Below are positions 23,809-29,949 of a stretch of 64,000 nt of DNA, one piece after another; positions within the stretch are counted from its first letter, which is position 1; each line of letters starts with the position of its first letter. The stretch lies in sequence record OQ873415.1; one strand, given 5' to 3'. The stretch comes from Escherichia phage PECP20. Made by a program: the position numbers and the translations under genes. The notes below the pieces were generated by a model. The model did no database searches. It was not told the DNA's origin and saw only the letters and a program-made list of their open reading frames with translations.

Positions 23809-26520
23809 TCAAAAATCGAACATATCGAACAGAGATGCTTTCTTCTCGTAATCGAGTTTCGCTGCTGATGTGAATCCTTCAAGTGGTTTAATAAATGTCT
23901 TCTCAAGGAGAACAGTGTAGTCCATCCAATGAAGTACGTCGTCTTTAATTAAATCTGTGATTTCAGTACCAGAAGGCCATGCGATACATTTATCACCGAA
24001 CGGGTTTCCATCACGTAAAGGCAGAACGTATACCTTTTCGCCTTCTACAACTTGTGGAGCATCAATATTACCTTTGATAGCTCTGTTATATGTCAGAATT
24101 CCACGAATATGGAACGGGCATTTAGGACCAGGGAATCCACCAACGTCATATTTAGCAATGTTATTCGCAGAAGATACTGACGCGATGCTAATATAATTCA
24201 ATTGACGGAATTCTTTTTCAAACTCTTTAAAATATTCTTGTAATGATTCTTCACCTTCTTGAAGCATACGACGAATACATTCTTTAAGAGCTTTCTGTAC
24301 TGCTTTAGGGGTCGAAGATTTCTGTGTTTCGAGACCCATGATTTTGAGTTTAGGCTCAGCGTATCTGGTTCCTTCCATATCCCACACGTTTAATGCATAA
24401 CGTTTCTTACCAGTCCAGAATCCACCAATACCTTTAGAACCGAGTGGAGGACCAGCAATAGCTTCTCGGTCCATGAACATCAAATGTTGCTTATTATTCA
24501 TGTATTCACACATTTCACGGAAACCTCTATCAATAGCCGGTTCCATACGTTCACGAGCGAACTTATCTAAGAAGTCTACCCAATGGTTGGTATCACGGAA
24601 TTTAGATTCACCAACCTTATCAATAATTTTATCTGCAGATACGTAAATAGAGTCTGTATCACCATAAAGAACGAAAGCTTCACCTTCTGTACCACAAACT
24701 TCGTTCAGATATTCATTAACTTTACGTTCAATCCACTGTAAAGCCATTTGACCAAATGTTGTGATTGCAGTTGCATTACGCAAATCGTAATAACGGAACC
24801 AAACGTTACCAAGTGCACCATAAAGCGAGTTGATGAGCAATTTACGGTTAATTTGTGCAGTCATACCTGCAACTTCAGTACGTTGAGCTCTAAACAACAT
24901 TTCATTAAGAGATTTAGCAGACAACTTTTTAATCTTTTCTTTAATCTCATCGCTGAAGTCGAAACGATAATCAACATCTAATGGTTCGTCAACAGAAAGA
25001 TTAGGATTATGCAACGCCTCTTTAATTATTTCACCATTACGTTGAGCCGCAAGCATGTAACCTTTATGTTCTTTACGTTGATTAAAGACCTTAGTGATTT
25101 CAGTTGGAACTACACCATCACGGTCTTTATAATACATCATGCCATTAGGAGAACAACTGTACACATCTGAAGGACGTTCAGCGATTGCGTTAATATAATC
25201 ATGCAGTGGAGCTACTTTAAACGTTCCTGCTATTGTTTCCGGGCTAATATTCACTTGGCGAATAATACTTGGATACAGGGATGTAAGGTCGAAACTCATT
25301 ACATATTTGTATCGATTTGGAATAGGTTCCTTAACAAAAGCGCCAGGATAAGGTTGAACCGGGTGAGAACGACCTTGTGGAATCACCTTGTTCTGCTCTT
25401 TAAGGCTATTAAAAATAATAGCATCCCATGTTTTAATTGGGCTAAACACAGATTGAATCTGTATCTTAGCATAATAACCCATGTCCAAACTCAAGTTGAT
25501 GAACTGACGCTTAGCATCAATTTGCAATACACGATACACGTCGATAATGTTATAAGAAATATATCGTTGGTGATTGCTTTCACGAAGCTTAGAAATAGGG
25601 CCGTCATATTTCAGTTTACCAACGTTCAATTCAAATTCTGAAATGTAATCCAGAGAATACGACGGTTGATTGGTAAAAGAGAATTTTTTGTAAAGGTCAA
25701 TGTAATCAAGAACAGAGATACCGAACAATGTAATGATTTCACGAGAACCATACATGTTTTCGATAACTTTAACACGAGTTTTACGATGTGGTGATAAACG
25801 TTTTGCTGTGGATTCACCAAAAATATTCTTGATTCTGTTATACACATATGGAATATCAAATGACTCAACGTTCCATCCAGTCAAAATGACAGGAGTTTTC
25901 TGTTGCCAGAAGTTGAGATATTCCATCAACAATTCTTTTTCGTTATCGAACGGCATATAAATGATTTTATCGATAATTTCGGATGGAACTTCATCACCAC
26001 CTTGTTCTTGAAGCTTAGCAGCGATTTCAATAGACCATTCTTCTACATTACCATATGGAGAATTCAATAGATCAAATACGTAGAACCTGTCGTCAATTGA
26101 GTCATAATGAGTGATAGCATCAATCGGATGTTTTGCTTGTGACGGCTCAGGGAACCCATCCGGAGATGTTACTTCGATGTCGAAGTTAGCCACACGAATT
26201 TTTGTATGGTCGTATTTGATTTCATAGTTATAAGTGTCAGACAAATACGCCAATTTGAAATCGTCCATGCCAAGTGCTTCAAGTCCGATATCTTCCATGC
26301 GTTTAATCCATTGGGAGGCATCACGCATATTAGCGAACAACTTACGAGTACACGGCTTACCGTAGATATCGAAATATTTCGTAGCCTGACTTTCTGGACA
26401 ATGTGCAAACAACGATGGCTTATACTCTACTTCACGAGTACGTTCACGGCCATTAGAATCGATGTAACGTTCAAAAATTGAATCACCAATCTGTTCAACC
26501 GTTAAGTAAAATTCTTTCAT
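23809..26520 (-). CDS. 43: DNA polymerase (family B, gp43)
   Basis: 903 aa; exo motifs (FDIEV), polymerase motifs (DxxSLYPSII, YGDTDS); N-terminus matches RB69 gp43 as recalled. Confidence 0.98.
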   Translation of the reverse strand: MKEFYLTVEQIGDSIFERYIDSNGRERTREVEYKPSLFAHCPESQATKYFDIYGKPCTRKLFANMRDASQWIKRMEDIGLEALGMDDFKLAYLSDTYNYEIKYDHTKIRVANFDIEVTSPDGFPEPSQAKHPIDAITHYDSIDDRFYVFDLLNSPYGNVEEWSIEIAAKLQEQGGDEVPSEIIDKIIYMPFDNEKELLMEYLNFWQQKTPVILTGWNVESFDIPYVYNRIKNIFGESTAKRLSPHRKTRVKVIENMYGSREIITLFGISVLDYIDLYKKFSFTNQPSYSLDYISEFELNVGKLKYDGPISKLRESNHQRYISYNIIDVYRVLQIDAKRQFINLSLDMGYYAKIQIQSVFSPIKTWDAIIFNSLKEQNKVIPQGRSHPVQPYPGAFVKEPIPNRYKYVMSFDLTSLYPSIIRQVNISPETIAGTFKVAPLHDYINAIAERPSDVYSCSPNGMMYYKDRDGVVPTEITKVFNQRKEHKGYMLAAQRNGEIIKEALHNPNLSVDEPLDVDYRFDFSDEIKEKIKKLSAKSLNEMLFRAQRTEVAGMTAQINRKLLINSLYGALGNVWFRYYDLRNATAITTFGQMALQWIERKVNEYLNEVCGTEGEAFVLYGDTDSIYVSADKIIDKVGESKFRDTNHWVDFLDKFARERMEPAIDRGFREMCEYMNNKQHLMFMDREAIAGPPLGSKGIGGFWTGKKRYALNVWDMEGTRYAEPKLKIMGLETQKSSTPKAVQKALKECIRRMLQEGEESLQEYFKEFEKEFRQLNYISIASVSSANNIAKYDVGGFPGPKCPFHIRGILTYNRAIKGNIDAPQVVEGEKVYVLPLRDGNPFGDKCIAWPSGTEITDLIKDDVLHWMDYTVLLEKTFIKPLEGFTSAAKLDYEKKASLFDMFDF

Positions 26521-26548
26521 TTAATTTCCTTTAGACGAGTTATTGTCT
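26521..26548 (-). promoter_or_regulatory. gene 43 translational operator (hairpin with AAUAACUC loop plus SD)
   Basis: Minus RNA AGAC-AAUAACUC-GUCU-AAAGGAAAUUAA-AUG; loop matches the T4 gp43 operator loop as recalled. Confidence 0.55.
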
Positions 26549-26580
26549 TTTGTTTGTTGATGAACTTATTATACTCCAAA

Positions 26581-26600
26581 TGGGACCGAAGTCCCATTGC
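26581..26600 (-). other. stable UUCG-tetraloop RNA hairpin between regA and gene 43
   Basis: Minus RNA AAUGGGAC-UUCG-GUCCCAUU directly after regA stop; followed by TATAAT hexamer. Confidence 0.5.
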
Positions 26601-26601
26601 T

Positions 26602-26970
26602 TTAATTACCAATTGTATATTTTGCTTTCAAAGTCCAGTCATCTTTCTGTTTAAAAGAGATAACACGGAAGTTATTAGTCAGGCTAAATAGATCTTCACG
26701 AGCAGAGTCTTCAATAACAATTAACCCCCAGTCTTCAAGCAACTGGGCAATCGAATCACGTCGCTGATAGTCTTCACCGTCGATATCAACTTGTCGTCCG
26801 TCCATACGCAGCATTTCTTTAAAGTGGACGATGTAGTATTTACCTTGCTTTTGGAGGATATGACAGGACTGATAAAGAACTTTATCCTTGTTATTAGCGA
26901 TGCCCATACGGGTCAGAGTCTCTTTGACTTTCAGAAAATCTTCGGGGTTCTTCAATTTAATTTCGATCAT
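26602..26970 (-). CDS. regA: translational repressor RegA
   Basis: Near-identical to T4 RegA as recalled; start set at MIEIKL ATG (26970), 122 aa; track start 26979. Confidence 0.9.
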   Translation of the reverse strand: MIEIKLKNPEDFLKVKETLTRMGIANNKDKVLYQSCHILQKQGKYYIVHFKEMLRMDGRQVDIDGEDYQRRDSIAQLLEDWGLIVIEDSAREDLFSLTNNFRVISFKQKDDWTLKAKYTIGN

Positions 26971-26972
26971 TT

Positions 26973-27536
26973 TTACCATTCCAATGCTAATTTTTTAAAT
27001 TGTTTTTGTTCTTTCACATTTTTTGTAACTTCTTTGAGAAACTCATCAGTGACCATGGCCTTCAGTTCTTTAAGGACTATTGGCAGCTTGTTATTTTTTT
27101 CAAGGAGCCGTTTATACTCGGTGGCATCATTCATGTTGATTGTGTAATGTTTCATCAACAATTTGATAACTAGTAACTCTGAAGTGTCTTCGACTAGTTT
27201 AGCCCATTTAGAGAATCGACGACCACGCGGAATTGCCGCCATCATATAGTTGAAGTGCGCTTCATCACTTAATTCAGAACCGACTAAGTTCATCATGTAA
27301 ACAGCTGGCATACATTCCGGGAACTGGGATAATGAGTTCTCAACCATAAATTTTGAGTAGTCGACCTGAGCAATTGACATAGATTTCTTTTCATTAATAG
27401 CATTAACGATTTTAAAGAATTCATTCTCAGGTTTTTCTTTAAACATATCAGCACATTTTTGAATCGCATCAGCGTCATTAGACTTCCATGCAATTTGGTG
27501 CTCGTTAAGCTGGACGTCATCATCGAATAAGTTCAT
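26973..27536 (-). CDS. 62: clamp loader subunit gp62
   Basis: 187 aa; position and length as T4 gp62. Confidence 0.9.
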
Positions 27537-29733: not shown

Positions 29734-29922
29734 TTATTCGTAGAAGTCAGTAACTGTCCATGCGGAATTGCGATTAGACATTATTTTATTATACTCATCT
29801 TTAAAAGCAGATTTGAGCATTTGTTCAGTAACAATATGTTCTTCACCTGAAAACGTATTGGTCAAAACATATTTTTTAATTTCAGGGACAACGAGAAGAT
29901 GTTGTCCGGTTGAATACTCCAT
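29734..29922 (-). CDS. hypothetical protein (45.2 position)
   Basis: Start set at second in-frame ATG (29922), which has GGAG 8 nt upstream; track start 29934. Confidence 0.45.
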   Translation of the reverse strand: MEYSTGQHLLVVPEIKKYVLTNTFSGEEHIVTEQMLKSAFKDEYNKIMSNRNSAWTVTDFYE

Positions 29923-29949
29923 GTTGTTCTCCATTTAATTTGATGTGGT

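Follow-up and report, generated by a model that had tools for sequence, protein, structure and literature searches.

The first SELEX experiment was directed at the gene 43 operator of phage T4, and the T4/RB69 operator has become a classic of translational control; descriptions of the T4 promoter P43 and of the CUUCGG hairpins date to the late 1980s. In T4 and RB69, the DNA polymerase gp43 acts as an autogenous translational repressor, and its RNA target consists of a hairpin together with a segment overlapping the ribosome-binding site (PMC3014915). RNA binding and translational repression by gp43 have been reported for both phages (PMC3014915, PMC535899). The operator hairpin comprises 16 bases in RB69 and 18 in T4, with the top 10 bases, including the loop, common to the two (PMC3014915). 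Expression of T4 gene 43 depends strongly on MotA (PMC6024815), and the start of its middle promoter P43 is listed at position 29,933 of the T4 genome (PMC2988021 Table 1, citing Guild et al. 1988, Hsu & Karam 1990). The first description of CUUCGG hairpins came from T4 mRNA (Tuerk et al. 1988, via PMC4371310).

We analyzed 64,000 nucleotides of Escherichia phage PECP20 (OQ873415.1), hereafter the window, in which the sequence and the list of open reading frames place 81 nt between regA and gene 43, both encoded on the minus strand. The regA reading frame (26602..26979, minus strand; 125 amino acids, TAA stop at 26604-26602) encodes the translational repressor RegA, an annotation shared by over 150 near-identical Mosigvirus records and by RB69. 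Gene 43 (23809..26520, minus strand; AUG at 26520) encodes the DNA polymerase of 903 amino acids. Read along the minus strand, the spacer runs UAA-AGC-(AAUGGGAC UUCG GUCCCAUU)-U-GGAG-UAUAAU-AAGUUCAUCAACAAACAAA-(AGAC AAUAACUC GUCU)-AAAGGAAAUUAA-AUG, where the parentheses enclose the two hairpins. This spacer is 100% identical to that of phage RB69, and gp43, the presumed repressor acting on the operator of the window, is identical to RB69 gp43 at 901 of 903 positions (99.8%), the two substitutions being V446I and E837D. Together, the two identities establish the element in front of the polymerase gene as the RB69 gene 43 translational operator known from Karam's laboratory.

A Megablast search retrieved 153 phage records with 95-99% identity over 401 bp, all of them Mosigvirus (RB69-like) and annotated with regA and DNA polymerase at this place; over 161 nt, 149 phage records reach an identity of 99% or more. 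The differences in the two variant records that we inspected are one inserted nucleotide in the unstructured leader and, in gene 43, a synonymous change, and in both the hairpins, the -10 element and the Shine-Dalgarno sequence are untouched. Promoter, terminator and operator features are absent at the regA-43 junction from the RefSeq/GenBank records of T4 and RB69. An Rfam scan of positions 25500-27500 (E <= 10) returned only chance, snoRNA-like matches, the operator being without an Rfam family. In Shigella phage ESh27 (L056:49-144) and in pEC-M719-6WT.2 (L008:315-434), an automated, short "hypothetical protein" CDS spans the regA-43 spacer; the call, which covers the hairpin, the promoter and the operator, is almost certainly spurious.

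The spacer is very probably the regulatory junction between regA and gene 43 in an RB69-type phage, assembled from three known parts: a UUCG-capped hairpin, a homologue of P43, and the gene 43 operator. We propose that the UUCG hairpin ends and/or protects the 3' end of upstream 45-44-62-regA transcripts. A MotA/AsiA-dependent P43 homologue, with its -10 element TATAAT at 26573-26568 on the minus strand and an activator-box position that overlaps the hairpin DNA, would start the polymerase mRNA at approximately 26563-26561, as judged by homology to the mapped T4 start. On this mRNA, the operator would present the loop AAUAACUC on a weak 4-bp hairpin, followed by a single-stranded Shine-Dalgarno stretch. 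Polymerase present in excess over its DNA substrates would bind the loop and the 3' tail, thereby blocking ribosome loading on its own mRNA.

The operator hairpin occupies 26533..26548 on the minus strand. Its 4-bp stem, formed by AGAC (26548-26545) and GUCU (26536-26533), encloses an 8-nt loop (26544-26537), and 12 nt separate the 16-base structure from the gene 43 AUG. The intervening AAAGGAAAUUAA (26521..26532, minus strand) constitutes the single-stranded 3' part of the operator and contains the Shine-Dalgarno sequence AAGGA at 26531-26527. A first-pass annotation, made from the letters of the window, had already described this hairpin and tail and had noted a match of the loop to the T4 gp43 operator. 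The sequence bears out both points: the same 8-nt loop is found in the window, in RB69 and in T4, where we read it directly from the genome. Folding of the minus-strand transcript, proposed as a check at the time, places both spacer hairpins in the minimum free energy structure of a 116-nt transcript (z = -2.8). Folded alone, the operator hairpin has an energy of -3.2 kcal/mol (z = -4.0), and it is present in the minimum free energy and centroid folds alike; such low stability is as expected where bound protein stabilizes the structure. Repression by gp43 in PECP20 is a putative function, transferred from the RB69 and T4 literature on the strength of sequence identity.

The loop motif by itself is not rarer than chance. 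The 9-nt AATNACTCG has five matches in the window against 2.75 expected, and the other four lack the flanking stem. It is context and conservation that lift the operator above chance, namely the identity to RB69, the loop shared with T4, and covariation in the stem. To these the relatives contribute the covariation: we sampled the region upstream of gene 43 in 8 annotated relatives and 42 viral contigs, which together with the window gave 51 sequences. The motif AAU(A/U/C)AC(U/C)(C/U)G is present in 43 of the 51 sequences, in 19 distinct hairpin versions. Over about 20 T4-like lineages, the loop is constant except for position 4, which can be A, U or C; L033 alone has a further change, from C to U at position 8. 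The stems, by comparison, include AGAC/GUCU, AGUC/GACU, AGCC/GGCU, AUUC/GAAU, GGUC/GACC and others, with pairing kept throughout. The comparative data thus amount to a broad picture of natural variation in this operator, in which loop position 4 is free, position 8 has changed once, and the stem can vary provided that pairing is kept.

In an anchored alignment of the 19 distinct sequences, 87% of the stem cells are paired, compared with 57% in shuffled alignments, and every slid register is at most 46% paired. Two-sided changes affect four of the five pairs and 29 cells, and none of 500 shuffles reached the observed covariation. Counting pairs on the best hairpin picked at each locus proved circular, and we replaced that count by an unguided MAFFT alignment of 16 modules from at least 8 lineages. 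RNAalifold applied to this alignment gives exactly two helices, which are the two hairpins of the spacer, with compensatory pairs at 6 of 11 positions over both.

Some relatives depart from the common operator. At the operator position, Serratia phage PS2 (NC_024121; L032:560-575) and IMGVR_UViG_2974544603 (L036:560-576) carry GUCC-AGCAACCU-GGAC, with one extra G in the latter. The full 8-nt variant selected in the 1990 SELEX experiment of Tuerk and Gold is said to have been AGCAACCU; presumably, then, the natural loop of these two genomes matches the selected one exactly. Their loop core is -CAAC-, which a 2010 review names as the SELEX "major variant", asking whether natural phages carry it (PMC3014915). 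Scanning viral contigs for the AGCAACCU hairpin gave 50 matches, nearly all in unrelated contigs of approximately 40 kb and only these two in T4-like genomes, and a literature search for the strings AAUAACUC and AGCAACCU returned unrelated papers only. In the viral contigs L030, L031 and L033, where the gp43 N-terminus is approximately 65% identical, the operator hairpin UUC-UAAU(A/C)ACU(C/U)G-GAA follows the capped hairpin after approximately 10 nt, with no TATAAT between them. Gene 43 of these three may lack a dedicated promoter and owe its transcripts solely to run-through at the capped hairpin. Upstream of gene 43 in the most distant loci, L046, L047 and L050-L052 (gp43 N-terminus 55-62% identical), an operator-type loop was not found, and the region holds nothing but a terminator hairpin of the classical kind, followed by a long U-run. 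The finding is in accord with the absence of autoregulation in some T4-related polymerases (PMC3014915).

While the first-pass annotation was right about the operator, it overlooked the element that organizes the spacer. Between the two hairpins, in the sequence GGAGUAUAAU, lies GAGTATAAT (26576-26568), which is invariant and aligns with the -10 region of T4 P43; its TATAAT, an excellent fit to the sigma-70 consensus TAtaaT, is, by this homology, the -10 element of the gene 43 middle promoter. In the unguided alignment, GTATA..AT is invariant in all 16 modules. In T4, position 29,893 marks the gene 43 ATG and 29,972 the regA stop, which places the mapped P43 start 40 nt before the ATG, 5 nt past TATAAT and between both hairpins. 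The corresponding start predicted in the window would give a leader of approximately 41-43 nt. Since the P43 start lies downstream of the UUCG hairpin, polymerase mRNA initiated there would have the operator and not the UUCG hairpin, and the two hairpins would be on different transcripts whenever gene 43 is read from P43. The RB69 genome encodes both asiA and motA. For PECP20 we infer the presence of AsiA and MotA from its genus, the two genes being outside the 64-kb window.

The MotA box has the consensus (a/t)(a/t)(a/t)TGCTTtA and is located 12 +/- 1 bp upstream of the -10 element. Register analysis points to TGGGACTTCG (26587..26596, minus strand), with the core ACTT(C), as the candidate box of the P43 homologue. 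Located upstream of the -10 at a spacing of 13 bp, it overlaps the UUCG hairpin in its 5' arm and loop, and it agrees with the consensus at only 5 of 10 positions. The T4 sequence from -35 to -26 relative to the mapped P43 start is AGGGGCTTCG, whose core GCTT(C) at -31..-27 likewise falls on the hairpin loop and 5' arm. TGGGACTTCG is a plausible but putative MotA box.

We also considered ATTGCTTTA-N11-TATATT on the plus strand (26596-26621), which combines a 9/10 match to the MotA box with a good -10 element, points antisense into regA and has an equivalent in T4. This candidate was set aside, given two plus-strand matches against 0.7 expected and a -10 that lies within regA codons, and it may be a chance match; an equivalent promoter is absent from the T4 promoter list (PMC2988021 Table 1). 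A search for a coordinate-named promoter in the Hinton-lab RNA-seq paper and its supplements yielded nothing useful.

The hairpin that follows regA (26579..26598, minus strand) is a perfect 8-bp stem closed by a C-G pair and capped by UUCG, and is supported by the sequence, by folding and by RNAalifold. Its 5' arm AAUGGGAC spans 26598-26591, the UUCG loop 26590-26587 and the 3' arm GUCCCAUU 26586-26579. It begins 3 nt past the regA stop, and 30 nt separate it from the operator hairpin, in keeping with the placement given by the first-pass annotation. Four of its eight pairs are G-C, and folded alone it reaches -11.7 kcal/mol (z = -3.3). In the unguided alignment, RNAalifold identifies compensatory changes at three of seven pairs (A-U/U-A, A-U/G-C, C-G/G-C), which points to selection for pairing. 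In 48 of the 51 sequences, this place is taken by a GC-rich capped hairpin of comparable type; of the distant loci, L018 and L046 have none, and L036 is not cleanly resolved. It stands directly 3' of whichever reading frame is the last before gene 43, be it regA (Mosigvirus, T4) or a frame of approximately 72 amino acids (JS98, SP18, PEi20). For the upstream message it may plausibly form a 3' end that is stabilized, terminated or processed, so that the first-pass reading of the hairpin is a reasonable one. More specifically, we consider it reasonably probable that the hairpin works at the RNA level as a partial terminator and/or a barrier to 3' exonucleases for that message, and it may have an added role at the DNA level as part of P43.

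Two features of the sequence 5' of the hairpin vary among the relatives. The additional frame of approximately 72 amino acids between regA and the hairpin is found in JS98 (L005:92-307), SP18 (L006:101-316) and PEi20 (L002:341-559), that is, in the genera Dhakavirus, Gaprivervirus and Kanagawavirus. In Marfavirus, LQ5 and pEC-M719, which have no such frame, a remnant (A)TTTAA(A)GCAA resembles its 3' end and suggests a deletion. The motif UAA(A)GCAA directly 5' of the hairpin (AAGCAA at 26602-26597 on the minus strand of the window) is kept across genera, in L001-L008, L017, L040 and L042, whatever the upstream frame, and is missing in genera with a separate MotA-like box between hairpin and -10. 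Its opposite strand, TTGCTT(T/A)A, is a perfect MotA-box core in inverted orientation, centered near -38.

The overlap of hairpin and candidate box raises the possibility that the same 20 bp do two jobs, as an RNA hairpin that ends or protects the regA message and as DNA that carries the MotA box TGGGACTTCG of the polymerase promoter. We put this forward tentatively, with the balance of probability somewhat against it. If it is true, the invariance of CTTCG across six genera would reflect a double constraint, and some T4-type CUUCGG hairpins would be kept partly for the likeness of CTTCG to the MotA-box core. The idea is probably implicit in the original assignment of T4 P43, and we did not find it stated explicitly in the literature searched. 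A related explanation would have the hairpin conserved mainly as DNA, with the loop and 5' arm, (N)GGG(A/G)CTTCG, constituting the P43 MotA box and the RNA structure being secondary. It fits the position of the T4 core relative to the mapped start, the canonical spacing of the box in the window, and the invariance of CTTCG in Mosigvirus, Tequatrovirus, Dhakavirus, Gaprivervirus, Kanagawavirus and Marfavirus. MotA, moreover, tolerates deviant boxes, including one with an ACTT core at T4 P46, according to a review. However, the stem arms show compensatory substitutions (A-U/U-A and A-U/G-C), for which a protein-binding site has no need, and in L040 and L042 the hairpin persists although its loop, GAAA or UUAC, contains no CTT. 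The spacer between box and -10 also varies, from 13-15 bp in close genera to 17 in L016 and L037, and in more distant genera, where a separate box, TGCTAT or TACTTTA, lies at a distance of 12-13 bp from the -10, the hairpin is still retained further upstream. We therefore regard conservation as DNA only as unlikely, and the combined DNA and RNA role as the more likely of the two.

About as improbable, in our estimation, is that the endoribonuclease RegB cuts read-through RNA in the GGAG at 26574..26577 (minus strand), so that the regA message is capped by the hairpin at its 3' end and the polymerase message gains a new 5' end at the cut. GGAG lies 1 nt past the UUCG stem, and GGAGUAUAAUA can be compared with the consensus of strong RegB sites, GG*AGRAYARAA (PMC3014915): the A/U-rich sequence after GGAG fits five of the seven further positions. 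In T4, RegB processing stimulates gp43 synthesis (PMC3014915), and the motif is kept in T4, Mosigvirus, Dhakavirus, Kanagawavirus and Marfavirus. It is replaced, however, by GUAG in SP18-type phages and by AGAG in PM2, and RegB leaves many intergenic GGAG sites and most middle transcripts uncut (PMC3014915). GGAG also adjoins TATAAT even in genera where the hairpin is 20 nt further upstream, which suggests that it may be part of the promoter.

Less probable again is complete insulation of gene 43 from upstream transcription, with the UUCG hairpin acting as an efficient intrinsic terminator. In favor of this are the high stability of the GC-rich stem, the better tail of T4 (UUAUUUGG) and, in distant genera, the long U-runs behind the capped hairpin, which resemble those of a classical terminator. 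On the transcript strand of the window, however, the tail UGGAGUAU has U at only three of its first eight bases, where an intrinsic terminator would have at least five; a terminator scan did not call the hairpin on the transcript strand and listed it on the plus strand only. The weak U-tract and this missing call make efficient intrinsic termination doubtful in RB69-type phages. Finally, the notion that both hairpins are chance inverted repeats in an AT-rich spacer, to which a trivial 4-bp stem and a loop motif at chance frequency might have lent themselves, is refuted, with next to no probability left, by the 100% identity to an experimentally studied operator, by shuffle-tested covariation well above controls and by the independent RNAalifold recovery, as well as by a strand-specific excess of long UUCG stems.

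This excess concerns the whole window. On the minus strand, six of nine CTTCGG sites lie in stems of 7-9 bp, whereas on the plus strand only 1 of 17 has a stem of at least 5 bp, and that one is 5 bp long. The six sense-strand C(UUCG)G hairpins are at 48068-48051, 33232-33213, 26598-26579, 15913-15894, 14158-14137 and 8334-8313 (minus strand). All but the one at 15913-15894, which is inside an open reading frame, are intergenic, and three begin 3-7 nt past a stop codon. U-runs follow the hairpins at 33232-33213 and 8334-8313, unlike the weak U-tract of 26598-26579. At 33232-33185 (minus strand), the UUCG hairpin is followed by three bases and then by TTTGCTTTA-N11-TAGAAT, a middle promoter with a consensus-grade MotA box and a -10 element. 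It lies 51 nt upstream of a 339-aa open reading frame (MKILHLGDFHIG...), which looks gp47-like. The layout is the same as at regA-43, so the pattern of a capped hairpin followed by a middle promoter recurs.

Since the hairpin, the promoter and the operator are all well described in the T4 family, nothing at this junction is new: the operator, P43 and CUUCGG hairpins are textbook T4-family biology. The value of the analysis for annotation is that the spacer can be labeled as a regulatory region consisting of hairpin, promoter and operator.

Set against known systems, the locus shares with the T4 gene 32 operator the principle of a replication protein that represses its own mRNA through the 5' leader (PMC3014915). 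The gene 32 operator combines a pseudoknot with an unstructured tract and is bound cooperatively, whereas that of the window is a simple hairpin loop; folds of the 116-nt transcript and of the hairpins alone gave no evidence of a pseudoknot. The UUCG hairpin is of the same kind as the intercistronic C(UUCG)G hairpins of T4, with C-G closing and on the sense strand (Tuerk et al. 1988, via PMC4371310). The promoter keeps the T4 P43 sequence GGAGTATAAT, likewise between the UUCG hairpin and the operator. The two promoters differ in the core and spacing of the candidate box (GCTT and 15 bp in T4, ACTT and 13 bp in the window), and the start is mapped in T4 and predicted in the window. The T4 gene 43 operator has the same loop AAUAACUC, the same closing G, the same place just 5' of the Shine-Dalgarno sequence and the same autogenous logic. 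In contrast, its stem has 5 bp (AGCCU/GGGCU, with a U.G closing pair) and a stability of -6.3 rather than -3.2 kcal/mol, its hairpin lies approximately 4 nt from the P43 start compared with a leader of approximately 13-15 nt in the window, and its 3' tail is AUAAACUAAGGAAUAUCU instead of AAAGGAAAUUAA. The closest counterpart is the RB69 gene 43 operator (Wang, Pavlov & Karam 1997; Petrov & Karam 2002, via PMC3014915), to which the spacer of the window is nucleotide-identical. The window represents another Mosigvirus isolate, with a best flanking match of 98.5%, and here the same 16-base hairpin precedes the Shine-Dalgarno sequence, the cognate polymerase is 99.8% identical, and the two operators show no detectable difference.
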